Of a stretch of 56,839 nucleotides of DNA, positions 3,227 to 56,839 are shown one piece after another. The stretch's first letter is position 1; every line of letters starts with the position of its first letter. The translations under genes and the position numbers were made by a program. The notes under the pieces were generated by a model. It searched no databases. It was not told the DNA's origin and was given only the letters and a program-made list of their open reading frames with translations. The stretch is from Patescibacteria group bacterium (lineage in GTDB: Bacteria; Patescibacteriota; Kazan-3B-28; UBA10110). The stretch is from positions 1 through 56,839 of the forward strand of contig JAFGPN010000018.1 of assembly GCA_016936175.1 (NCBI GenBank). The letters run 5' to 3'.

Positions 3227-5758
3227 TTAGGTACTGATCGAGAGCTTGGCTTCGGCAGTAGAGTTGTCGGTTTTGGTTAACCGAACCTTTACCTCATGCG
3301 AACTGCCATCTAACTTGGGCGGGGTAAGCATATATCTAAACGGTTGGGCACTGGCCTGACCCATCAACGTTCCATCATAGAAAAACTCCACTTTTTTAGC
3401 TGTCATTGGATCCCCAACTTGAGCCTCTACTTCAAATGGGCCAGTTACTTTGAATCCTTCTGAAGGATTAGTAATGGTAATGCTGGGGACTGCGCTACCA
3501 TCCAATGGGCCAGTATAAATCTCTGTAGGGATATTATTGTAACCGTTATCTTTAGCCCACTTGATTACTGGGTCCTCCCAATTTCGATTATCCGGTCGCT
3601 CAGAATGTAGTACTGTAAATACTTTTTCTTCTACTAAATCTATCGGGGCATTAGCCGGAGCCAACTTATCCGGGGCGATTTTCATTACCTTAACCTTTTT
3701 GTGAACGTTGTCTGTTTCGGTCGGTACATTATTCGGCGCAAATATCTCTTTTTTAGTGGACGGGGTGTCACCGCTCGGCAATAAGCCAGATAGCTCGTCT
3801 ACATCAATCTCTCTAATCCCTGACGGCATAATAAATGGTTTGTCCGGAATATTTGCCAAGGCTTTACGCATATATGTGTTCCAAATCGGAGCCGCCACTA
3901 ACCCGGAGGCGGCAGTCATCGATTCGTTATCGTTGTTGCCCGACCACACCCCCGCTACCAAATCTGGTGTATAACCAATCGTCCAACCGTCGCGAAATTT
4001 ATCCGTCGTACCGGTTTTAGCCGCCACCGTTCGACCACTGATCGAAAGCGGCCCACCAACTCCGAATACCGCCCCGCGCGCTTGATCATCACTTAGCACA
4101 TCATTAATCTGGTAGGCTATTTCAGAATCGATAACTCGTTTTGGCGAGCTGGCTTTGTTCTCTTCCAACACCCGCCCTCTGGCATCCTCTACTTTAATTA
4201 CCGACCAAGGCTTTGCCCGAAGCCCTCCAGTAGCAAACACGCCGTATGCCGATACCATATCCAACAAAGTAATCTCACCACCACCCAAGACTAACGAGGC
4301 ACCGTATCGCTCTGGTTCGTTTAATGTGGTAATACCCAAACGATGCGCCATATCAACCGAGTTATTTACCCCGGCATAAAGTAATGTCTTAACCGCTGGC
4401 ACGTTGATAGAATTCTGCAGAGCAGTTCGAATAGACATCGCGCCTCTAAATTTTCCGTCGTAGTTATTGGGCGAATAACCCTGGCCAAAATCGGTTTTGA
4501 CATCAATTAACATGGTAGCCGGGCTATAGCCTTTCTCAAACGCCGCCGCATAAACAAGCGGCTTAATCGAAGAACCCGGTTGCCGTTCGGCGATAGTTAC
4601 ATTAAAGTTGCCATCTTCCTCCAGATCAAAATAGTCTTTAGACCCAACCATGGCCAGAATCTCGCCGGTATTTGGATCGATCGATACCATCGCCGCATTG
4701 CCAGCGTTGTATTTAGCCTTATTACCCTCGGCGTATTTGGTAATCGCCTCTTCTGCCGCCGCCTGTTTCTCCCAATCTAAAGTTGTAGTAATGGTTAGCC
4801 CCCCTTCTTCCAACATCTTTTCGCCGTATTTGGCCGCCAACAACTCTTTGACATACATCACAAAATGAGGAGCCCGTATACTATCTTTGCGTGGAGAAAA
4901 AGCAATCTCTTGCTTCTGAGCCTCAGCCATCTGTTTTTCGGTAATATAACCCAGCTCGAACATCCGTTTAAGTGTCCAATCTTTTCGCGCCATTAAATCG
5001 TCTGAGTGCTGACCATAAGGCGAATAGTAAGTCGGAGACTGCGGCAGGGCGGCCAATATCGCTGTCTCTGCCAAACTTAGATCCTGTGGTTTTTTGGCAA
5101 AAAATGTCTCCGAGGCAGACAAAATCCCATAAACCTTTCCACCATAAGGAATTTCGTTTAAATACATCTCCAAAATCTTATCCTTGGCATACAATCGTTC
5201 AATCTCCATCGCCAAGATCAGCTCCTGGATCTTACGGCTAACGGTCCGACGGGAAGATAAGAACATATTTTTTGCTAACTGTTGAGTGATAGTGGAACCA
5301 CCCTGAAATCCCTGGCCCGTTAACGGCTTTAACACCACTCCACGCAGAATACCCTTCATATCAAAACCGTTGTGGGCATAGAAATTACTATCCTCGGCGG
5401 CGATGGTGGCCTTTTGCAGTTGGTCTGGAATATCCGCCAAAGGGATACTGTTTCTCCGTTTCTCGCCATAAATATCCAAGAGCACTATCCCGTTACGATC
5501 CAATACCTTAGTGGCTTCGGTCGGCCTGGCCCCTACCAAATTGGTCGGGTTAGGCAAGGTGATGCTTAAAACCGCCGCCCAAAAGGAAAATACAAACAAC
5601 AATGCTATTCCAATCCCCAGAACCAACCGCGAGATATTGGTAATACCAAATCTGCCTAACCGCTTAAAGATCTGGGTTTTGCCTTTACGTAGGATGGCTC
5701 GCCGACGCATTCGCCGCCTTAGGTTTTCCGGGTTGTTTATCGGGATTAAATCACTCAT
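3227..5758 (-). CDS. Class A penicillin-binding protein (transglycosylase/transpeptidase) with C-terminal Ig-like domain
   Basis: EDSNFYAH, GGSTITQQLAKN, GSSIKP (SxxK), SIN, KTGT motifs. Confidence 0.95.
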   Translation of the reverse strand: MSDLIPINNPENLRRRMRRRAILRKGKTQIFKRLGRFGITNISRLVLGIGIALLFVFSFWAAVLSITLPNPTNLVGARPTEATKVLDRNGIVLLDIYGEKRRNSIPLADIPDQLQKATIAAEDSNFYAHNGFDMKGILRGVVLKPLTGQGFQGGSTITQQLAKNMFLSSRRTVSRKIQELILAMEIERLYAKDKILEMYLNEIPYGGKVYGILSASETFFAKKPQDLSLAETAILAALPQSPTYYSPYGQHSDDLMARKDWTLKRMFELGYITEKQMAEAQKQEIAFSPRKDSIRAPHFVMYVKELLAAKYGEKMLEEGGLTITTTLDWEKQAAAEEAITKYAEGNKAKYNAGNAAMVSIDPNTGEILAMVGSKDYFDLEEDGNFNVTIAERQPGSSIKPLVYAAAFEKGYSPATMLIDVKTDFGQGYSPNNYDGKFRGAMSIRTALQNSINVPAVKTLLYAGVNNSVDMAHRLGITTLNEPERYGASLVLGGGEITLLDMVSAYGVFATGGLRAKPWSVIKVEDARGRVLEENKASSPKRVIDSEIAYQINDVLSDDQARGAVFGVGGPLSISGRTVAAKTGTTDKFRDGWTIGYTPDLVAGVWSGNNDNESMTAASGLVAAPIWNTYMRKALANIPDKPFIMPSGIREIDVDELSGLLPSGDTPSTKKEIFAPNNVPTETDNVHKKVKVMKIAPDKLAPANAPIDLVEEKVFTVLHSERPDNRNWEDPVIKWAKDNGYNNIPTEIYTGPLDGSAVPSITITNPSEGFKVTGPFEVEAQVGDPMTAKKVEFFYDGTLMGQASAQPFRYMLTPPKLDGSSHEVKVRLTKTDNSTAEAKLSIST

Positions 5759-5811
5759 ATACTTACGTATTATAACCCATACCAGCCGGCTATATCTGTT
5801 ACAATAAATTC

Positions 5812-7038
5812 ATGAGGAAACCAAATAAATCAGAACTGGACGAGCTGTTCAACCGCCGCGTCGAGAGCGTTGTTGGCGAAAAAGAGCTACGCGCCAAGCT
5901 GATATCCGGTAAAAAATTGTTAATTAAGCATGGGGTAGATCCGACCACCGCCCTGCTTCATATCGGCCACGCCACCGCCTATCACAAAATGCGCGAATTT
6001 CAGAACTTAGGACACACCGTTCAGTTTTTGGTTGGCGGCTTTACTGCCCGATTTGGTGATCCGACCGACCGAAGCCACTCACGCCAACTGCAATCAAAAG
6101 CCGAAGTGATGAAACTGGCTAAGCAATATCTTAATCAGGCCCTCAAGATATTGGATCCCAAAAAAACCGAGATTCGTTACAACTCGGAGTGGTACGACAA
6201 ACTATCGGCCGAAAGCCTGATTGAACTGATGTCACACTTTACCCATCAACAGATGATTGAACGCGATATGTTCCAAAAAAGATTAAAGGCCAAGCTTGAA
6301 ATTCGTTTTCACGAGCCAGTTTATCCACTGTTACAGGCCTACGACTCCGTGGTGCTTAAGGATGATCTAACAGTAATTGGCACCGATCAATTATTTAACG
6401 AAATGCGCGGCCGAGACCTCCAGCGCGACTTTGGGCAAGAGCCCCAGGCTATTATTACTGTCCCGCTATTAGTTGGCACCGATGGGAAAAATAAGATGAG
6501 CAAAACACTGGGAAACGCTATCAACATATTGGATGAGCCAAAAGCTCAATACGGTAAGATCATGTCCGTCCCGGATACGTTGATATATACCTATTTTGAT
6601 TTGGCCACCAACATTAATTCTGCTGAATTGGGTCGGATTAAAAAACAGTTAGCTGATAAACACACCAACCCGAGAGACCTCAAAATGGAGTTGGCTCATA
6701 AGATTGTCAGTATGTACCACGGCGGTTTAGCGGCCGACAAAGCTCAGGATGATTTTGTAAAGGTCTTCCAAAAACATAGTGTGCCCAGTAACATTCCTGC
6801 CGTATCCATTAAAAAACCGACCCCTCTGATCGATATCTTGCTGGAAAACGGTCTAGTTACTTCAAAATCCGAGTTCCGGAGACTGTTGGATCAAAAAGGG
6901 GTGAAGGTAGACGGTCACGTGGTCACGGATTTGGGGTACGAACTGCGACCCCCGACCGAGCCTCGAGATAGCGGGCAACTCAAAACCAGCGCCACCATCC
7001 AAGTAGGTAAGCGCCGCTTCCTCCAAATAAAGCCCTGA
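5812..7038 (+). CDS. tyrS: Tyrosine--tRNA ligase
   Basis: DPT..LHIGH, YPLLQAYD, GTDQ, KMSKT, C-terminal S4 domain. Confidence 0.96.
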   Translation: MRKPNKSELDELFNRRVESVVGEKELRAKLISGKKLLIKHGVDPTTALLHIGHATAYHKMREFQNLGHTVQFLVGGFTARFGDPTDRSHSRQLQSKAEVMKLAKQYLNQALKILDPKKTEIRYNSEWYDKLSAESLIELMSHFTHQQMIERDMFQKRLKAKLEIRFHEPVYPLLQAYDSVVLKDDLTVIGTDQLFNEMRGRDLQRDFGQEPQAIITVPLLVGTDGKNKMSKTLGNAINILDEPKAQYGKIMSVPDTLIYTYFDLATNINSAELGRIKKQLADKHTNPRDLKMELAHKIVSMYHGGLAADKAQDDFVKVFQKHSVPSNIPAVSIKKPTPLIDILLENGLVTSKSEFRRLLDQKGVKVDGHVVTDLGYELRPPTEPRDSGQLKTSATIQVGKRRFLQIKP

Positions 7039-30599: not shown

Positions 30600-32248
30600 A
30601 CCAGAGCCGATTTATCCTCCAATATCCCGTGAACTTCTTGTTTACGTTCTTTGGCGGTTATCGCAAACCCCAAATACTTACCCAACATTAACCGGGTTTC
30701 CGCATCCAAGGCCGGGATAGAGCCAAAGATCACCCCGGAGATGGGCACAAATATCCATTGTAAAATCATCTCCAGTCGCTTCCAGCGGGGAAAGTGCTTG
30801 GGCATCGGCGGTAGTAGGCCCTGTGCCACGATTACCGATATCACCACGCCCACCCAGGTGATGCTAAGTAGATTTCGGGCTAACACTGGTAGATTAAAAG
30901 CCAACACTGTAGTTCTAAATTCTGGGTTTAACAGCAGAGGCATCCAGCCACCCAAAGCGATTAGCAACGAAGAGGTAGACCAAGATACATGGCCTTCAAA
31001 GGTTCGAAAAGGATGAATAATGCGTTGATACCAGGTTAACTGACCACGAGTCGAAAAATATTTCTCCATTAAATACGGTAGGTGCTCTATCCCCCACGCC
31101 CACCGGCGTTTTTGAACGTACTGCGCCTTCATTGTGTCCCAAACATTTTTACCCAATACCGCATCCATCGATACCGGGCTAAAGATAGGTATAGCGCGAT
31201 GATTGCCATTGTATCTAAAATAGGCCCGATAAAACTGCCGAGAATCTTCGGACACAATCGCTCGGTCCCAAAAATCAATATCAACTAGGGTTTTTAAGCT
31301 CATCGCCTGCGAAGAGAAATTAATCAATCGATGTGGCCGGGTTGATTCGATCATCTGCCAATAAGATGAGCCTAGCGCCACTAATCGGTTGAGCATCGGC
31401 ACATCCCATAAATTATTATTAAATAACGGGATAGGTTGATAGCTCCTAAAGGTTCGCTCTGGATTTAGAATATACTCGTAGGTAACGTTGGCAAAATATT
31501 GCCGAGAAGGCAGAGTATCGGCATCGAAACAAGATACCATAATGTTGTCGTAAGCTAGTTCTCGCTCATCGACGTATCTCTGTAGCTCTTTGCCGGCATG
31601 ATAGACATTAGCCCCCTTGGCTTTGAGCTCTCCCGCAATCCCGTCGGGGTGAACCGTAATTATTACATCGGCGAATACATCTTTGTATTCCTCTGCCACC
31701 CGACGAACCACCACTTGTGCCGATTCACCGGCTCGCTCCTCGGTCGCTAACACAATTACCAGCTTGTCTTTGGGGTAATTGCTATCGGCGCACGCCCGAA
31801 GCGAGGTTGATACTAATTCGTAACTTTCTTTATAAATAGCATAGATAACGACATGCAAAACCTCGTTCCACTGTTTTTGTAATCCCGGCAAGGCTCGCAT
31901 CTGCTCTACCTGGGCCAACTCTTCTCTAATTCTGCTCGCCTCAAACCCCTTAGCTAACTGATACTTGCGGGTCAGCTCGTTGGCCCAATTTTCCAGATCC
32001 ACAGTTTTTTTACAGCGCTCCAACCAATCTATCCGCGTATTCCGCTTTAGGTGAATATAGCCAGCTACCAGATGGCCGCCCATAACCAGGGCCTTGGTCA
32101 ACCAATAGGTATCAAACAGAATAATAAAATAGGCCACTCCGGCCGGCCAGACAAAAGAAAAAATCACCGGCAACGCCAAAATCAGCCAGGAGGTCATCCC
32201 AGGAAACATCTCCCAAAACCGATAACTTCGAGCCCTTTTCATCGGCAC
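30596..32248 (-). CDS. Membrane GT2-family glycosyltransferase
   Basis: KGAN, DAD, SED, QKRRWAWG (QxxRW), TM segments. Confidence 0.9.
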   Translation of the reverse strand: MPMKRARSYRFWEMFPGMTSWLILALPVIFSFVWPAGVAYFIILFDTYWLTKALVMGGHLVAGYIHLKRNTRIDWLERCKKTVDLENWANELTRKYQLAKGFEASRIREELAQVEQMRALPGLQKQWNEVLHVVIYAIYKESYELVSTSLRACADSNYPKDKLVIVLATEERAGESAQVVVRRVAEEYKDVFADVIITVHPDGIAGELKAKGANVYHAGKELQRYVDERELAYDNIMVSCFDADTLPSRQYFANVTYEYILNPERTFRSYQPIPLFNNNLWDVPMLNRLVALGSSYWQMIESTRPHRLINFSSQAMSLKTLVDIDFWDRAIVSEDSRQFYRAYFRYNGNHRAIPIFSPVSMDAVLGKNVWDTMKAQYVQKRRWAWGIEHLPYLMEKYFSTRGQLTWYQRIIHPFRTFEGHVSWSTSSLLIALGGWMPLLLNPEFRTTVLAFNLPVLARNLLSITWVGVVISVIVAQGLLPPMPKHFPRWKRLEMILQWIFVPISGVIFGSIPALDAETRLMLGKYLGFAITAKERKQEVHGILEDKSALV

Positions 32249-35834: not shown

Positions 35835-37754
35835 TTATTTCTGCTCTTCGGAGTCGCCTTCTTTAAACTCGCCCTCTTTAGCGTTACCGTTGTCAGTCGA
35901 TTCTTTAGGCTGGTCACCGGCCGGGGCCTCGGGTTGTTGTTTATACATCGCCTCGCCCACTTTAGACAGTGTACCCGAGAGCTCTTCGGTAGCCTTTTTT
36001 AGTTCATCGGTATTATCGGTATTAAGGAGCTCTTTAACCGCCTTTATCTTGGCTTCGATGTCGCTCTTCAACGTGGCGTCCACCTTGTCGCCGGCATCTT
36101 TAAGCGCCTTCTCGGAAGCATAAACCAAACTATCGGCTTGGTTTTTAACATCTATCTTCTCGCGCTTAGCCTTGTCTTCGGTGGCGTACTTTTCGGCTTC
36201 TGCCGCCATTTTTTCGACTTCCTCTTTGGATAAGCCAGACGAGGCGGTAATGGTTATCTTCTGCTCCTTGCCGGTGGCTTTATCTTTGGCGGCCACATTA
36301 ACGATGCCGTTGGCATCGATATCGAAGGTTACCTCCACTTGAGGCACCCCTCGAGGCGCTGGCGGAATACCATCTAAGATAAACCGACCCAGAGTTTTGT
36401 TATCGCTCGCCATTTCTCGTTCGCCCTGCACCACATTTATCTCGACCGAAGTTTGGTTATCTGCCGCGGTCGAAAATATCTGCGATTTGCTGGTTGGGAT
36501 AGTGGTGTTGCGTTCGATTAGTTTAGTGGCCACTCCGCCCAAGGTTTCTAACCCTAACGATAACGGCGTTACATCCAACAACAGAATATCTTTAACATCG
36601 CCCTGCAATACTCCACCCTGAATTGCGGCGCCCATCGCCACTGCTTCATCGGGATTAACGCTTTTATTGGGCTCTTTGCCAAAGAATTTCTTAACCGTTT
36701 CTATCACTAACGGCATTCTGGTCATCCCCCCTACCAAAATTACCTCATCGATGTCCGAGGTGCTTAAACCGGCATCTTTGAGCGCCTTCTCCATCGGCGG
36801 GATAGTATTTTCTACCAAATCGCCCACCAACTGCTCTAATTTAGAGCGAGATAACTTCATCACCAGATGCTTCGGGCCAGATTCATCCGCGGTTACAAAC
36901 GGGATGTTTATCTCGGTCTCGGTAGAGCTGGATAGCTCTTGCTTGGCTTTTTCGGCCGCTTCTTTTAATCGCTGTAACGCTAACTTATCATCAGCCAAGT
37001 TAATTCCCTGGTCCTTTTTAAACTCTTCGATAATCCAGTTGATAACTCGCTGGTCAAAATCATCACCACCCAAATGGGTATCGCCGTTGGTGGCCTTAAC
37101 CTCAAACACCGATTCGCCCTCGGAATCCCCGATCTCTAAGATGGAGATATCGTAAGTGCCGCCACCCAAATCGTAAACAGCCACCTTCTCGTTCTTTTTG
37201 TTGTTCTTATCCAAACCGTAAGCCAGTGTGGCCGCGGTTGGTTCGTTGATGATTCGCTTAACATCAAGGCCAGCTATCTGCCCGGCATCCTTGGTGGCCT
37301 GGCGCTGGGAATCATCAAAGTAGGCCGGAACGGTAATCACCGCTTCTTTTACTTCTTCTCCCAAATAGGCTTCGGCATCTCGCTTGATCTTTTGTAAGAC
37401 CAGCGCCGATATCTCTTGAGCGGTATAATCCTTGCCGCCCATCTCTACAGTAGAGCCACCGTTGCTGGCCTGCTTTATCTTGTACGGCATCAGTTTTACA
37501 TCCTTTTGTGTTTCGGGGTCGTCAAACCGCCGACCGATAAACCGCTTAACCGAAAACACGGTATTATCCGGGTTGGTTACCGCCTGCCGTTTGGCCAGCT
37601 GTCCGACCAGTGTATCCCCTGCCTTGGTAGTAGCCACCACCGAAGGTACCGTCCGGCCACCTTCGGCCGACGGAATAATCTCTACCTTGCCGCCGCGCAT
37701 AACTGCGGCCGCACTGTTGGTTGTCCCCAAATCAATCCCAATAATCTTATTCAT
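35835..37754 (-). CDS. dnaK: Chaperone DnaK
   Basis: [32 protein letters not shown]. Confidence 0.99.
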
Positions 37755-51374: not shown

Positions 51375-51740
51375 ATGAATAATGACAATCTCCAGGGTCT
51401 GCTGAAGATGTGCGATCAAAAGGACGAGCAGATTAGTGGCATAATTGTGTTTGATATGGATAGCGGCAAGTCGCTTGCCTCCACTTTTTCGTCCGAATAT
51501 GACGCCAAGACCATAGCCATAGAGCAAGCACTAACAGCCCTCGATGAAGATCGGATCATGAAGTTGGACCCAGTCGGCCCTAAAAATTGGGCGATGTACT
51601 CGTACGACAGAAAAGTTGTGGCTACTGTTAAAATCCGAGGCTCCATTTGGTTATCTTGCGAATACAAAACCGAGAAAGCCCCCAGTGCCGCTATAGAAGA
51701 TGCCCTGGAAATAGCGCTAATGGCCAATGATAAACTCTAA
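51375..51740 (+). CDS. Hypothetical protein, possible Roadblock/LC7 (profilin-like) fold
   Basis: ISGIIVFDMDSGKSLAS pattern, 121 aa, AAGGGAG SD. Confidence 0.55.
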   Translation: MNNDNLQGLLKMCDQKDEQISGIIVFDMDSGKSLASTFSSEYDAKTIAIEQALTALDEDRIMKLDPVGPKNWAMYSYDRKVVATVKIRGSIWLSCEYKTEKAPSAAIEDALEIALMANDKL

Positions 51741-51760
51741 AAGATAGTCCCCAAGAACTC

Positions 51761-51790
51761 AAAAGCGCCCCGATTAATCGGGGCGCTTTT
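51761..51790. terminator. Bidirectional terminator
   Basis: aaaagcgccccgat-taat-cggggcgctttt between convergent genes. Confidence 0.8.
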
Positions 51791-51801
51791 AGACGCAATA
51801 G

Positions 51802-51993
51802 TTACTTTTTGCCCCAGCGGGTAAACAACTCGTAGAGAGCTGCTAAGCCGACCAGAGCGTAGATCACACGAGAAAGCGTACTCATGTCACCAAACAAGGT
51901 GGCAACCAGGTCAAAATTAAAGAATCCAACTAAACCCCAGTTAAGTCCACCAATGACGACCAACAAAAATGTAATCCAACCTAATGTGCTCAT
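51802..51993 (-). CDS. DUF378 family small membrane protein
   Basis: LVVIGGLNWGLVG..FDLVA.LFG...RVIYALVGLAALY. Confidence 0.92.
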   Translation of the reverse strand: MSTLGWITFLLVVIGGLNWGLVGFFNFDLVATLFGDMSTLSRVIYALVGLAALYELFTRWGKK

Positions 51994-52273
51994 GATGATA
52001 ATTCCTTGGTTACTAAAAACTTCATCGGTCCCCTACTCTTATTTTATCAAAAATACCACCACTCAGCGGATTTCCAACCTTACTTGCCTCCCCATATCCT
52101 ATACAGAGAATACTATAACCTATTTAGGGGAAGCCGCGAGGCAATAATTTATCAATTTAGAACTTTCGAAAAGGAGCTTAGACAAACAGATCGGTTACAG
52201 AATCTACGGAACAAAATAAGGCAAACGCAGTCTGGTGATGAGCTATTTATTTGCCCCAAAGCCCTCCCAACAT

Positions 52274-53110
52274 TTAACCTTGTTTTTGTATCTCCACTTG
52301 ATGCGGAAATGGAATCTCTATATTCTCGCTATCAAAAGCTTCTTTGAGCATCTTTCTAAATTCTCGGCTCAACTCCCATTGCCTGCCAGGTTGCACTTTA
52401 CCCAAAATCTTCACTATCATAGCCGAATCAGCAAACTCTTCTACTCCCGCCAATTCAGGTGGTTCGACAACATCCTGATTATCAGCCTGAAGCCTTCTGC
52501 CAACTTCGTTAACTATCTGCTTTAATTTCTTCAAATCTGTACCATAACCTACTCCAACATCCCAGTTAATCCGCGCCCAGCCCTTCGTCAAATTGCTGGC
52601 GATAGTTATCTCGCCATTGGGTACGTGATGCTGGGTTCCATTTAAATCACGTAGTACCGTCCGACGTAAATCAAAATCTTCTACTGTTCCGGTTACTCCG
52701 GCTACTTTAACAATATCTCCCTCTGAATACTGATCCTCAATTAAGATAAATATCCCGTGGAAGAGGTTTTTTACCATATCCTGCGCTCCAAAACCTACCG
52801 CAATGCCAATAATGCCGGCACCAGTAAGTATTGGAGCAATGTTAATACCCAGCTCTACAAAAATCATCAAAAGGACTATCAAAAAAAATACCACTCCCAG
52901 AGTCTTGGTAAAAACTTGATGGAGAGTATCAATTCGTTTTTTTCTGCCAAAATCTGATCTCTTGCCGATTACGTGTTTGGCTAAAACCGAGGTTAACAAG
53001 CGTCTAATCAAGCTGGATATCGCCAGCTGAGCAACCACACCCGCCACAATAATAACAGCAACCTTTAACCCGGAGGTCTGCAACCACAAAATCAAACCAT
53101 CATAATTCAT
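52274..53110 (-). CDS. Small-conductance mechanosensitive channel (MscS/YbiO-like)
   Basis: GAGIIGIAVGFGAQD, GTVE, VPNG, IEIPFPH. Confidence 0.93.
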   Translation of the reverse strand: MNYDGLILWLQTSGLKVAVIIVAGVVAQLAISSLIRRLLTSVLAKHVIGKRSDFGRKKRIDTLHQVFTKTLGVVFFLIVLLMIFVELGINIAPILTGAGIIGIAVGFGAQDMVKNLFHGIFILIEDQYSEGDIVKVAGVTGTVEDFDLRRTVLRDLNGTQHHVPNGEITIASNLTKGWARINWDVGVGYGTDLKKLKQIVNEVGRRLQADNQDVVEPPELAGVEEFADSAMIVKILGKVQPGRQWELSREFRKMLKEAFDSENIEIPFPHQVEIQKQG

Positions 53111-53130
53111 ACGTCTACTATAACAGAATC

Positions 53131-53288
53131 AAAAAGCTCGCTCTAAAAGCGACTGATTTATTCGTGGCGGCGCCATGAGCCTGTCGAATGGCTCCCCTTA
53201 TTGGACCGTCTTAGTCTCCTGACCCTACGGGTCGTAGACCCAGGAGGGAACTTTGGATTGGGTGAAAGTGAGAAAACAGTTGGATGAA
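53131..53288. repeat. Module-boundary repeat R1 (hairpin + tRNA-3'-like att core), with inserts
   Basis: Aligns with 53705-53771, 55987-56050 and 56802-56839. Confidence 0.8.
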
Positions 53289-53294
53289 TATGGG

Positions 53295-53660
53295 TTAAAA
53301 GGCCATCCACAACAACCAACCACCCAATATGAGTAACGCTAATGCTTCAAGAACTTGGTGGTATTTAAAAGCCTGTGCCTGTTTGTGAATAAAATCTGGA
53401 AAACCGATTTTCATAATTCCCTTGATCATAGTGCCCCATCCCAACACAGTTATTACCACTGTCCAGTCAGCAACCCAAACATTATGCAATATTACAGTCA
53501 CCAACCCCATCAAGAAGCTGATATAGCCTGTGGCAATAACAAATGCCTTGTCTTCGGTCATCTCTATGGTTCTGCCCAGCTGTTTAGTTATCAGAGCCAA
53601 CAAACCAAAAGCTAAAAAGAAACTGCCCCAAAGTTTTGCAAAAAATATTGAAACCTCCAT
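53295..53660 (-). CDS. Hypothetical four-TM membrane protein
   Basis: HNVW..W..ITVLGW..KG...FP motif. Confidence 0.8.
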   Translation of the reverse strand: MEVSIFFAKLWGSFFLAFGLLALITKQLGRTIEMTEDKAFVIATGYISFLMGLVTVILHNVWVADWTVVITVLGWGTMIKGIMKIGFPDFIHKQAQAFKYHQVLEALALLILGGWLLWMAF

Positions 53661-53704
53661 TGTTGTTGCTTTAATTGAATATCACTCTCATCATACATCA
53701 ATCC

Positions 53705-53771
53705 AAAAACTCGCCCCACAAGCGACTAATTTAGACTTAGCTCCCTCTACTGGATAAATTTAGAACTTTGG
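53705..53771. repeat. Module-boundary repeat R2
   Basis: aaaaactcgccccacaagcga...tagctccctctactggataaatttagaactttgg. Confidence 0.8.
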
Positions 53772-53778
53772 TAACAAT

Positions 53779-54045
53779 TTATTGATTTTGGGAGTTTTTA
53801 GATTTCCCCGATATTGATGATGTAGCTATTAAGCCTATCCCGACAATACCTATAATAGTTGCGATACCTGTAGTATTTTCTCCTAAAATACTACCATTCC
53901 ACATTAAGAAAGCGCCTGTTAAAGCTAATAAAATTCCTAATATAAATAAAGGTCTGTTTATGGTAATTCTTCGTATGTTCTTCCGAAATACTACCATTAA
54001 CGCTAACAAGACTACTGCTATGGCTAATAAAATTTTTAGTATCAT
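53779..54045 (-). CDS. Small membrane protein
   Basis: Three hydrophobic segments, AT-rich. Confidence 0.65.
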   Translation of the reverse strand: MILKILLAIAVVLLALMVVFRKNIRRITINRPLFILGILLALTGAFLMWNGSILGENTTGIATIIGIVGIGLIATSSISGKSKNSQNQ

Positions 54046-54149
54046 CGTAATTTATATTTTAAACAAATTATTCCTATTCCATTTTACCAAGTTTTATTCC
54101 TTCCCAGGGTATTTGGCTCTTCTGTCGGATGACAGACGTCGCTAACATG

Positions 54150-54495
54150 TGGCTCCGGGGGGCGGATTCCGCTCCGCTAGAACCTGTCGCCCCGGACTAG
54201 TCGGGGCTCTTCGGACCCTTGCGGTTCCGACGTCCGCTCCGATTAATCGGAGCGTTCTGCCTCCACTGCGGGGAAACTCCCGTTTCCCCGACCCCTTTCA
54301 CAGGGTTCGAGTCCACCCAAACAACGAAAAACCACCAGAAGATTCTGGTGTTCTTTCAGGGCTCAACAGCTTGGCTCAGAACCCCCCACCAACGTCAGCC
54401 CTCCGTAGCTCCTAAAGGAGTTGGAGCGAAGGACGGGAGGAGATAATTCGGAGGTTTTGGTCGGGCTCGAACGCAACTGGGTTAATTATAGAACC
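54150..54495. repeat. Module boundary with tRNA-3'-like end and clustered palindromic repeats
   Basis: Minus strand ggttc[tagcggagcg]gaatccgccccccggagcca; several perfect palindromes; ttatagaacc next to the following stop codon. Confidence 0.6.
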
Positions 54496-55889
54496 TAGGC
54501 GACCGAGGGTGCGATTTTCCTGCGAAAAATTAGGTCATAGAGTAGAACTATCAGAACACCCAGAGGCGTTGTAATAATGAATGTGTTTTCCCCTACAAAA
54601 GGATAGGCGGCAAATAACACTATAACGGGAACCAAAATCGCATAAAAACTGGCTTCCGGCGAAAATCTTTTACCATAGATTCCTACAAATATCGGTGGGA
54701 TAAAAATCAAAGCCAGATAAGTCACCAACAGAGACAGGGTAATAATATTGGGTACTAAAAAGGCCAACACAAAGCCAAATATCCCAAATGCGGCAGTTAA
54801 AATGCGAGCATACAGGATATTCTGCCCTCTACCTCGCTCTCTTTCTTGCAAAAAAGCTTTGTACAGTATGGTAGAGCCACCTATTAGTAAACTATCAATT
54901 GAGGACATGATAACGGCTAGGATAGCCGCAAAGCCAACTCCTGCGAGCCACCCAGGCAACAAGCTATCCATCAAAGCAAATATAGCAGTCTCGGGCTTAA
55001 CATCTCCTAATGATACAGTTGCTACCAAACCTAAGAACAATATCAAAACCCCCAGAATCAGCATAAAGGGGATACTAATAAAGAACGAGTTGCGAGCCAC
55101 CCTTGAGTTCTCAGCCGATAACACTCTTTGCCAATGAGCTGTGTTCCCTAAATAGAGAAATCCACTTAAAACTATCATGCCAATAAACCAACCCATCCCA
55201 CCAAAGGCAAGTGGATCAAGATGCCCTGCCGGCAACTGCGATAATAAGTTTGATATCCCACCGACATGGTTATAACCCATCACGGCCATAACTATAAACG
55301 CTAAGGAAAATATCCAAAATTGCACAAAATCTGTCAGAATATCTATCTTCAAACCGCCAATCGATGTGTACAACACTGTGACGGCAGCCACCACTAATAA
55401 TGCTAAATTGTAATTTACACCGATTAACACTGAGGTTAATGAGGCCAGAGCTACAGCTTGTACTCCAATCCATATGGTGAGCAAAAAAAGCTGTAGAATG
55501 CTAACGAGCATTCCATTTTTGAAATCGAATCTCTGCCTAAAGAAATCCACAATAGTATAGGCATTATACTTATCACCAATGATTTTTATTTGCTTAGCCA
55601 AAATACCTAACACAACCATTCCGGCTACTAATGAGATGGGCAGAGCTATCCCATAAGAGATACCCGACCGATACACCTCAGAGACTATGGCTACAGTAGC
55701 GCCAGCTCCCACCACCGTAGCGATAGTGGAGAATGTCATCATCCACAAGCTAGTTTTTCTTTTATTCAGAAAATAGGCATCAAGTGATTCTCGCCTAGAG
55801 AAAAACCATGCCATTCCGAACAGCAAAACTAGGTACACCAACAAAACAATAATTTTGATATCCATGCCTGAATTATACATTAAAACCAA
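54495..55889 (-). CDS. Sodium:solute symporter (SSS) family transporter
   Basis: ATVVGAG, YTSIGGLK....TDFVQ, WQRVLSA, AVIMSSIDS. Confidence 0.92.
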   Translation of the reverse strand: MVLMYNSGMDIKIIVLLVYLVLLFGMAWFFSRRESLDAYFLNKRKTSLWMMTFSTIATVVGAGATVAIVSEVYRSGISYGIALPISLVAGMVVLGILAKQIKIIGDKYNAYTIVDFFRQRFDFKNGMLVSILQLFLLTIWIGVQAVALASLTSVLIGVNYNLALLVVAAVTVLYTSIGGLKIDILTDFVQFWIFSLAFIVMAVMGYNHVGGISNLLSQLPAGHLDPLAFGGMGWFIGMIVLSGFLYLGNTAHWQRVLSAENSRVARNSFFISIPFMLILGVLILFLGLVATVSLGDVKPETAIFALMDSLLPGWLAGVGFAAILAVIMSSIDSLLIGGSTILYKAFLQERERGRGQNILYARILTAAFGIFGFVLAFLVPNIITLSLLVTYLALIFIPPIFVGIYGKRFSPEASFYAILVPVIVLFAAYPFVGENTFIITTPLGVLIVLLYDLIFRRKIAPSVA

Positions 55890-55986
55890 CTAGATAATTT
55901 GTTCCCATAGCTCTATATTTAATGCAACTGAATCACTTTGCTCCCGACTTCGCTCTCCGAGCTACGACGGGCAGGCACGCACTGGT

Positions 55987-56050
55987 TGGCTCCCCTGTTG
56001 GATAAGTTTAGAACTTTGGATTGGGTAAAAGTGAGGAACGAACTGGATGC
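55987..56050. repeat. Module-boundary repeat R5
   Basis: tggctcccctgttggataagtttagaactttggattgggtaaaagtgag closely matches R1 after R1's insert is removed. Confidence 0.85.
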
Positions 56051-56057
56051 ATTAAGT

Positions 56058-56786
56058 TTATTTAACTGCCCCAAAGACAATCAAAACCTTGTAATCGTCT
56101 AACCCTTCTCCCCTTTTATCACTCGGGGATATGAATTGCCTTTCTGCAACATCAATATACTGTTCAAGATATTCTAATGCTTCTTGGTCATCCTTCATTG
56201 CCAAGTTATGTGATGGAATAGCAGGACCTATTGGTAAGCTCAGGATTATCTTATCTCCGACAAAGCGATGAATGTTCTCCCAGAATAGCTCTGGCTGGTC
56301 TAAGTGTTCTATCGTCTCAACGGCTACAAAAAGACGTTTGCCATCAATAATCTTGTTCTGAATATCATTCCAGCCTTCTTTTGACTGGATATCTGATTTT
56401 ATCAGCTGAACATTTGAAACTTTAAGATAATCCACAATCTCTTTTGCCACTTGTATAGCTGAATCATAGTGGTCAACCAACAGAAGTGGTTTATTTTTCA
56501 ATCCACTAACATCATCTTGCAGATAAAGATACGGCAAACTAAATCCCAGCTCTATAATCTGGTCAAAATCCTGATACTTCTTAAATAACAAGTCATACCG
56601 CTGATTGAACCATAGACTATCATCCCAGAAGTTCTGTAAATGGACTAAACGGGTTTTGACATCTTCATAAACCTCATTCCCGTATTCGTTAAAGTGGTTA
56701 TTGTAAAACAATCGGTGTTGTTTGAGCTGGTTTTCTGTGACCGAAAACTTACCTAGCAAATAATCTAATAGCTTAGTCCTATCCAT
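56058..56786 (-). CDS. Class I SAM-dependent methyltransferase-like protein (degenerate motif I)
   Basis: IIELG, LLVDH, IKSDI, ETIEHL arranged in Rossmann MTase order. Confidence 0.55.
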   Translation of the reverse strand: MDRTKLLDYLLGKFSVTENQLKQHRLFYNNHFNEYGNEVYEDVKTRLVHLQNFWDDSLWFNQRYDLLFKKYQDFDQIIELGFSLPYLYLQDDVSGLKNKPLLLVDHYDSAIQVAKEIVDYLKVSNVQLIKSDIQSKEGWNDIQNKIIDGKRLFVAVETIEHLDQPELFWENIHRFVGDKIILSLPIGPAIPSHNLAMKDDQEALEYLEQYIDVAERQFISPSDKRGEGLDDYKVLIVFGAVK

Positions 56787-56839
56787 AAGTTAAATATATC
56801 ACAAAATCCGCTCTACAAGCGAACATTTTGTGTTGGCTC

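Follow-up and report, generated by a model that had tools for sequence, protein, structure and literature searches.

The closest described counterpart of the locus reported here is the group of ssrA islands of Dehalococcoides (McMurdie et al. 2011, PMC3146451). As set out in that paper's sections on the islands, they lie in tandem downstream of one small-RNA gene and are bounded by direct repeats of its 3' end; a serine recombinase gene of ~540 aa sits by attL and overlaps the attachment (att) site; and islands without integration modules were read there as cis-mobilizable or fixed. For the recombinase DsiB, the authors suggest a gene that is complete only on the circle or beside an island carrying a 3' gene fragment. 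These features have counterparts in the array analyzed here, which occupies the right end (from 52.2 kb) of a 56,839-nt stretch of DNA from a Patescibacteria group bacterium. This stretch, called the window, is an entire contig (C18, GenBank JAFGPN010000018.1) of assembly GCA_016936175.1 (genome G000; 670 kb in 18 contigs, 90% complete). We conclude, at a probability of about 0.85, that the window holds the distal part of a hypervariable locus at tRNA-Asn(GTT), where a tandem array of decayed islands would have arisen by successive insertions, mainly of elements whose large serine recombinase (LSR) gene loses its 3' tail on integration (split-tail LSRs).

Other systems share single aspects of such an arrangement. 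SSV-type 'suicidal' tyrosine integrases likewise have attP within the integrase gene, and insertion into a tRNA gene partitions it; the section of Badel et al. (2020, PMC7253208) devoted to them calls them confined to archaea to date and notes that a tandem insertion would rebuild the integrase and that trapped elements lead to gene capture. Those tyrosine enzymes are split near the middle into two dead halves (PMC7253208), whereas the serine recombinase discussed here would part with no more than its ~30 C-terminal residues, the integrated gene remaining an open frame of ~500-570 aa. The accretion of cis-mobilizable elements (CIMEs), as modeled in the relevant part of Guedon et al. (2017, PMC5704250), proceeds by integration, decay that keeps attL and attR without the integrase, and new integration alongside, the same three steps that we propose below; unlike CIMEs, which are described there as derivatives of conjugative elements in Firmicutes and usually span many kb, nothing here indicates conjugation. 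The Islander paper (PMC4383910) states, where it treats integrase genes, that the Mx8 and SSV integrases extend across attP and that tRNA genes are not among the known targets of serine integrases. As with Mx8 IntP, an integrase gene that lies across attP has its protein C-terminus altered by integration. The Mx8 enzyme differs in being a phage tyrosine integrase without a tandem array of gene modules. That the Mx8 integrase gene extends across attP is reportedly also the title statement of a 1996 paper by Tojo et al.

A conserved tail that matches large serine recombinases

On the minus strand, the repeat unit that separates the genes of the array has three parts: ~60-75 nt kept across families, a core reading (G)GGGAGCCA, and a variable 'head', usually a short hairpin followed by a T-run. 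The alignment comprised copies from the window, from contig C13 of the same assembly and from the relatives G004, G006, G014 and G015. Read on the plus strand, the first part translates as WLPLLDKFRTLDWVKVRKELDEF, and among the copies of five genomes the codons vary in a synonymous or conservative manner (e.g. GAT/GAC, or AGA/CGT for Arg). Judged by the protein matches that follow, these conserved ~25-35 codons beside the core (WLPLLDKFRTLDWVKVRKEL..., plus strand; the 'tail') are the 3' end of an LSR gene that contains, within this end, its own attachment site.

Pfam assigned the tail peptides to no family. A profile of seven tail copies, searched against 1.84 billion proteins, gave 110 matches at E ≤ 0.001, mostly short open reading frames (ORFs); in the longer matches the motif is C-terminal and preceded by ...EKRxFLNYLLQN..KKLxFxIxSPFNLVLE.... 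One of these longer matches, the fragment P0097, gave 223 matches when compared with longer proteins. Among the best 120 of these, which are the ones listed, most are ~500-540 aa long with Resolvase, Recombinase and Zn-ribbon domains (precomputed Pfam), and several are named as Patescibacteria. The 107 listed matches of at least 450 aa fall into distinct classes by their C-termini: 12 end in the tail (e.g. ...SPNWLPLVDKFRTANW...), 35 run past 'WL' into residues antisense to a T-arm (...RGQDSNLRPID), 49 stop no more than 4 residues after 'WL', 8 have a ..DDVRT.. variant end and 3 end otherwise. From this tally, the gene natively ends in the tail, and the majority of database copies represent the integrated form.

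The arrangement is intact in G014, a complete genome of the same order and another family. Its 573-aa LSR ends ...EKLVDSDNWLP/RLDSNQRPIA (DNWLPRLDSNQRPIA, then stop) and overlaps the 3' end of a convergent tRNA-Asn gene, while its tail, WLPLLDKFRKVDW... (WLPLLDKFRKVDWIKVRRELDDF...), begins at a GGAGCCA core 5.3 kb away (L066:11542) in the same frame as the LSR; four ORFs of at least 100 aa are listed between the two. The LSR of G010 is 56% identical to that of G014 and ends ...FWL/RGWDSNPRP. In other relatives, LSR genes of other families overlap tRNA-Glu (L025) and tRNA-Pro (L035) or stop just before tRNA-Ser (L039). No long ORF carrying the tail was found when the relatives' LSR loci were searched with the tail hidden Markov model (HMM), as follows if these are integrated copies without the tail.

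These results bear on whether the conserved stretch might instead be a minus-strand small RNA or tRNA-like gene, or a plus-strand gene for a small peptide. An identity of 83-90% over ~66 nt across families would suit such a gene, as would the ending ...GGGGAGCCA followed by a terminator. Against it stand the lack of any Rfam family at E ≤ 5 and of any tRNA model match, the frameshifts and insertions, the absence of a start codon from most copies, and the identity of the peptide with the end of ~530-aa proteins. We find either form of this explanation scarcely credible.

Other readings were rejected as well. Rfam, run at the gathering threshold and at E ≤ 5 over 51700-56839, returned chance-level matches only, and ARAGORN found no tRNA in the same interval. 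The core, folded by hand as a tRNA or minihelix, gave weak and inconsistent stems. Two 53-aa minus-strand ORFs, considered as small proteins, proved unrelated to each other.

The core and its matching tRNA

The core common to the junctions, GAGCCA, is the 3' end of tRNA-Asn and tRNA-Gln, and in most cases a terminator-like hairpin comes after it. All cores (GGGGAGCCA twice, CCGGAGCCA, GAGCCA and degenerate copies) lie on the minus strand, co-oriented with the tRNA gene. The original prediction, made from the letters of the window, had likened the core of the repeat to the T-arm and acceptor end of a tRNA and placed the matching minus-strand gene probably just right of the window. The last 7-9 nt (GGAGCCA) are indeed tRNA-derived, whereas the 'GTTC...TCC' taken for a T-arm consists of antisense integrase codons.

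The gene itself exists, on another contig. Contig C16 ends in the 3' half of tRNA-Asn(GTT) (...CCCCGGGAGCCA), the reverse complement of which overlaps the last 6 bases of the window, and C16:3603-9207 is collinear with the DNA beyond tRNA-Asn in G002, a genome of the same genus (71-79% identity over long blocks). In G002 the order of the locus is two tRNA-Met genes, a DUF378 gene, a 5.1-kb array and tRNA-Asn(GTT) on the minus strand. The junction at the end of the window (56806-56839) is probably the trailer of the tRNA-Asn on C16.

At C16:9174-9806 (L018 375-1007), a 558-nt group I intron (Rfam RF00028, 99.4 bits, E 3e-25) interrupts the tRNA-Asn gene behind anticodon position 35 and contains a 115-aa HNH-type ORF. 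The joined exons of the gene form a normal 75-nt tRNA-Asn; ARAGORN labels the gene wrongly as a tRNA-Thr with an intron. The tRNA-Asn of G002 is intron-free. G010 may share the intron, as similar sequence lies downstream of its LSR. Elsewhere in the assembly, ARAGORN predicts a tRNA-Leu(UAA) with a 1001-nt intron (C15:21737-22834); the intron position of tRNA-Leu(UAA) is a classic group I intron site.

Both contigs break exactly at the recombination core (window 56834-56839; C16:9799-9806). Because the sequence that they share is too short to confuse an assembler, the breaks suggest that tRNA-Asn has more than one neighbor in the sampled population, in which case the array would vary among strains.

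Genome-wide, the tail occurs at this locus and beside tRNA-Gln on C13 and nowhere else, so the repeat is not scattered independently of the array. The 13-mer TTTAGAACTTTGG has two exact occurrences and one with a single mismatch within the 4.7-kb array; in the other 52 kb of the window there are only three matches, each with two mismatches. A profile built from copies outside the window recovers tail A and the second half of tail B (E values in Table 1). This confinement argues against ordinary intergenic repeats of the repetitive extragenic palindrome (REP) or miniature inverted-repeat transposable element (MITE) kind, or terminator or promoter motifs that the genes happen to share, with no integration involved. 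GC-rich hairpin inserts and a multi-copy, structured element of ~190 nt do occur in the region, and the junction hairpins resemble terminators, as such an account would have it; the tail, however, is the C-terminus of real LSR proteins and is limited to two tRNA-linked loci, the core equals a tRNA 3' end, and relatives keep the intact arrangement. We consider this account very improbable.

tRNA-Gln(UUG) on C13 ends ...CCCGGGAGCCA, the same as the tRNA fragment at the end of C16 (ARAGORN missed this gene in the whole-genome run and found it in the run on the locus). A second small array adjoins it (C13:13906-15600; L017 407-2100): two tail fragments with cores (GGGGGAGCCA and GGGGGAGGCA) and terminators lie 1.3-1.6 kb downstream of the tRNA, with genes for a small membrane protein and a 199-aa ORF in between. 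A GIY-YIG gene lies just upstream of tRNA-Gln.

Variability among relatives

On its left side the array is flanked by a DUF378 gene and three tRNA-Met genes. The DUF378 gene, present in 23 of 30 other genomes, adjoins the tRNA-Met cluster in relatives as well, and its proteins in the three genomes of this genus (G000, G001 and G002) are 95-97% identical; the alignment of the window with G001 and G002 stops just upstream of it. The interval between tRNA-Asn and DUF378 ranges from 1.07 kb in G005 to 36.6 kb in G014, with G002 (5.1 kb), G016 (5.3 kb) and G015 (18.5 kb) in between, the long intervals also holding tRNA genes and perhaps core genes. Between DUF378 and tRNA-Asn, G000, G001 and G002 have no cargo in common but three different gene sets; a gene order fixed among relatives is thus not what we find. 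The array of G002 contains two exact 20-nt copies of the tRNA-Asn end (GAGTCCGACCCCGGGAGCCA) and shorter ones.

Two comparisons among relatives place breaks in homology at the core. A transporter module is 92.7% identical over 937 nt between G001 and G014, starting at TGGCTC with unrelated sequence on the other side, while the genes that flank the shared module reach about 60-77% protein identity. G002 and G013 are 92% identical over 210 nt from the core onward, and a Fic gene (93% protein identity) lies between cores in both. These comparisons are good evidence for recombination at the cores and for the movement of modules from lineage to lineage, though not for a present mobility of the window's own modules.

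A further junction, ...GTTCTGACTTCCTCCAGCCAAC/GGAGCCA, recurs in G014 (L066 10907 and 12097) and G013 (L071 11104 and 15984). Its antisense translation, WLRWLEEVRT..., is possibly the tail of another recombinase family that uses the same core.

Mobility of this kind raises the possibility that the modules serve as a pool of working cassettes, each unit lacking an integrase but having intact att ends and being excised and re-inserted in trans by split-tail LSRs on incoming elements, much like CIMEs and, in effect, like an integron. The shared transporter module, with its break exactly at the core in two families, and the Fic gene would be expected of such a pool, as would the one-gene modules that lie between GGAGCCA cores beside the intact LSR element in G014 (L066 10907-12097) and between cores in G002 and G001. 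However, the tails in the window show damage (A is frameshifted, B has an insert and C is truncated); the DNA homology around the Fic gene ends short of the cores; no cargo of the window recurs in other arrays among the fetched loci, nor its methyltransferase-like gene in any of 25 genomes; and neither joints nor circular (excision) or empty-site junctions were seen when contigs from public runs were compared with the region, the material being contigs only, with poor and patchy cover. (One public run contains the stretch and may be where it came from; a second has a 0.07 share of the sampled words, and three of its pieces match without differences.) For the modules of the window we therefore hold a working pool to be possible but doubtful, and prefer decayed islands left by successive insertions.

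Junctions and cargo of the window

The five minus-strand genes and the junctions with a common repeat that the original prediction described are borne out, as are the positions of the copies (Table 1). Cores flank every module; several are mutated, and the tails are damaged.

Table 1. Features of the array and its distal flank (window positions)
Feature	Position	Strand	Evidence or remark
DUF378 gene, conserved distal flank of the variable locus	51802-51993	-	Pfam PF04070, E 2.9e-25
Most distal junction: degenerate core GGGGAGGCA 52085-52093, terminator-like hairpin 52056-52069	52056-52093	-	G002 equivalent GGGGAGCCA (L019 728 to 720)
Decayed integrase-tail remnant (TTTAGAACTTTCG), nearly gone	52141-52168	+	One mismatch to the 13-mer
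mscS, MscS-type mechanosensitive channel	52274-53110	-	Pfam and NCBIfam matches
Junction B: core GGGGAGCCA 53189-53197, post-core TTCGACAGGCTCATGGCGCC, terminator-like hairpin 53138-53152	53138-53197	-	
Integrase-tail fragment B: WLPLLDRL... / ...TLDWVKVRKQLDEYG	53198-53294	+	Translation; HMM E 1.7e-6
121-aa hydrophobic protein, no family	53295-53660	-	Pfam and NCBIfam searched
Junction C: hairpin 53711-53725, mutated core AGGGAGCTA (TAGCTCCCT) 53738-53746, first ~8 tail codons 53747-53771	53711-53771	-	
88-aa hydrophobic protein, no family	53779-54045	-	Pfam and NCBIfam searched
GC-rich ~176-nt non-coding mini-element with tRNA-Asn-type 3' end, core 54150-54156	54114-54325	-	
Second junction type: about 135-139-nt element from GGTTCTA... 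to ...GTTGAGCCC, degenerate core 54359-54367, hairpin 54333-54350	54333-54497	-	
Sodium:solute symporter (SSS) family gene	54495-55889	-	PF00474, E 1.2e-37; TIGR00813
Junction A: core GGGGAGCCA (TGGCTCCCC) 55987-55995, post-core ACCAGTGCG...GAGCAAAG broken by GC-rich hairpin	55935-55995	-	
Integrase-tail fragment A: (L)LDKFRTLDWVKVRNELDALSLFNCPKDNQNLVIV, then stop	55996-56102	+	HMM E 1.1e-14
242-aa protein, weak methyltransferase-like match	56058-56786	-	Methyltransf_31 E 0.0024, below cut-off; no NCBIfam match
Proximal junction at contig end: partial core GAGCCA 56834-56839 (TGGCTC on plus strand), terminator-like hairpin 56806-56824	56806-56839	-	Fold z-score -4.05

The three main junctions are related to others outside the window. 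The post-core of junction B resembles the trailer of the C13 tRNA-Gln (TTCGACAAGCTCATGGC); the arrangement of junction C recurs on both sides of the core at C13:15241-15310 and in G004 (L015); and the post-core of junction A is common to G015 and G013 (GGAGCCAACCAGTGCGCGAGCAAAGCGACCCA). In the window, the conserved sequence of copy A extends to about 56052 and that of copy B to about 53294. A 31-nt GC-rich palindromic insert splits tail B (53217-53247), and a 1-nt deletion at the core puts tail A out of frame with the WLP core; tail A overlaps the 3' end of the next gene. The GC-rich hairpin inserts of A and B are each single-copy in this genome. Terminator-like hairpins on the minus strand follow five junctions, with fold z-scores of -1.1 to -4.1; a terminator scan found 9 terminator-like sites in the region, compared with 4.9 +/- 2.2 in shuffles.

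Other elements account for two further junctions. A weak copy of the repeat that had been proposed at 54487 exists as sequence but is no copy of the main repeat: it is the far end of a different element (54359-54497). In G002 three modules end in this element, as does one module each in G001 and in G014; the G002 and G001 copies end ...GAGCTGTTGAGCCA. One G002 copy has an open 47-aa frame (P0236), two other copies carry stops, and a search with P0236 matched no longer protein (6 candidates, none at E ≤ 0.01).

The copy at 54150, in which a 10-nt insert had been postulated, is real and reads GGTTC[TAGCGGAGCG]GAATCCGCCCCCCGGAGCCA on the minus strand, the part in brackets being the insert. Its post-core (54114-54149), a hairpin with a second AGAGCCA, is 95% identical to G002 (L019 2122-2163). 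A non-coding, GC-rich element, roughly 180-200 nt long, has six copies in the genome, one of them at 54150-54325 (the others at C17:6692-6900, C8:138-330, C5:~36650-36912, C4:~30900-31056 and C15:66471-66565). Five copies lie no more than 300 nt downstream of a co-oriented tRNA (Ala, Asp, Glu and two Arg). Three of these five terminate in an exact 20-26-nt copy of the 3' end of the very tRNA that they adjoin; a contig end interrupts one copy, and another is truncated; the copy at tRNA-Ala has nearly the same 10-nt insert as that in the window. Among copies the internal part of the element is 94-100% identical and the ends are target-specific, a pattern that fits target duplication better than a fixed attP. 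Judged by eye, the left end resembles an inverted copy of the same tRNA's T-arm.

The cargo has few counterparts. When the five cargo proteins were compared with all fetched loci by tblastn, mscS homologues alone were matched, the 121-aa, 88-aa and SSS proteins giving no match. Of 26 other genomes searched, 4 have mscS homologues, and both same-genus genomes lack them; the methyltransferase-like gene is in none of 25 other genomes of the order. No cargo recurs in the relatives' arrays; the arrival of these genes as separate elements is read from the junctions. The 88-aa gene contains internal direct repeats ~100 nt apart (53873-53898/53973-53998 and 53905-53943/54004-54042), pointing to a putative duplicated transmembrane segment.

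Proposed assembly of the array

We propose that small integrative elements would insert successively at the last bases of tRNA-Asn (core TGGCTCC on the plus strand) by site-specific recombination, with the crossover probably within TGGCTCC(C). In the main family, the LSR would carry attP inside the 3' end of its own gene. On insertion, most of the integrase gene would come to read antisense into the tRNA, its ~25-35 final codons (WLPLLDKFRTLDW...) would be left behind at the element's opposite end, and the tRNA would acquire a new trailer with a terminator; the junction hairpins would then be the terminators with which each incoming element equips the tRNA that it regenerates. Each later insertion would push older elements farther from the tRNA. 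In the window the integrase bodies would since have been lost, presumably by deletion, leaving five one-gene modules whose junctions consist of an antisense tail, a GAGCCA core and a terminator; the ~176-nt non-coding mini-element and the ~139-nt element would have added two further junctions at the same site.

Several observations weigh against this scheme. The join between C18 and C16 consists of the 6-nt overlap and synteny alone, and the two contigs may be separated by further modules. Tail decay follows no gradient with distance from the tRNA, the middle copy, C, being the most truncated. Synonymous changes are about as frequent in the plus frame of the tail (89/201) as in one antisense frame (88/197), and since these counts do not separate the two, we call the strand from the database proteins. 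An intact cognate LSR is absent from the array, from its surroundings and from the rest of this 90%-complete assembly, the sole LSR of which (C1:~5100-6500) is broken and belongs to another family. The mscS homologues of the four relatives stand in ordinary contexts with no junction motifs, and the other four cargo genes are found in no relative's array.

A recombinase had been predicted near the array. ORFs and Pfam reveal none between 51994 and 56839, so that, unlike in G014, the islands here do not each have an integrase of their own, and the only tyrosine recombinase match in the genome (PF00589, C18:19110-19619) lies 32 kb off. The enzyme appears instead in relatives, as in the G014 LSR against tRNA-Asn, with the repeat itself as its split-off 3' end. 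The prediction that the repeats are scars of repeated site-specific integration at one tRNA is nonetheless supported: none of the four findings that bear on it, concerning the tRNA, the recombinase, the gene order among relatives and the distribution of the repeat, told against it.

Discussion

Together, these results support a mechanism in which a split-tail serine recombinase acts at the tRNA-Asn tip. Successive insertion of small mobile elements at the end of a tRNA gene is a known route to variable gene arrays, found here in a tiny uncultured bacterium. Set against the sections of McMurdie et al. on target and recombinase (PMC3146451), the locus differs from the Dehalococcoides islands in several respects: its targets are tRNA-Asn and tRNA-Gln rather than the transfer-messenger RNA (tmRNA); the crossover would fall at the last ~7 bases rather than midway through the T-loop; and the detached 3' fragment shows strong conservation at the protein level, in contrast to the C-termini of DsiB, which were reported to be divergent. 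Its modules are single genes of 0.4-1.5 kb, and the host is a Patescibacteria genome of ~0.7 Mb. A full-text literature search returned, in the passages that it covered, no description of tRNA-targeting serine recombinases in bacteria of the candidate phyla radiation.

The likeness to integrons that had been suggested holds as an analogy only. As in integrons, co-oriented single-gene units are added at one site; unlike integrons, the locus has no IntI, attI or Pc and no apparent attC, each module has its own terminator, docking takes place at a tRNA end, and a serine enzyme would arrive on the incoming element. Searches of the junctions for inverted repeats found short terminator stems only, and tail, tRNA core and terminator otherwise explain the junctions. 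Beyond the window, split-tail LSRs and their integrase-less one-gene derivatives might constitute a working system of gene-cassette exchange in ultra-small bacteria, with the 3' tip of tRNA-Asn as docking site, a generalization that we offer tentatively and regard as rather unlikely. If true, cassettes delimited by tail-core-head sites would be swapped between families and stacked or removed singly, as a serine-recombinase counterpart of the integron.

The value of the window by itself is modest, since it holds scars only; the wider interest lies in the enzymes. A large clade of Patescibacteria serine recombinases with a tRNA target and attP in their own gene would widen the known target range of these integrases, and the conserved tail, being present on the excised form only, is a simple candidate for a directionality switch. 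Small-site serine integrases with defined, universal tRNA targets may also be of use in genome engineering. For the bacteria themselves, genomes of ~0.7 Mb leave little room for accessory genes. Within one genus, a single tRNA tip carries a different gene set in each of three genomes. The locus reveals the place, and probably the manner, in which transporters, channels and further accessory functions are acquired.

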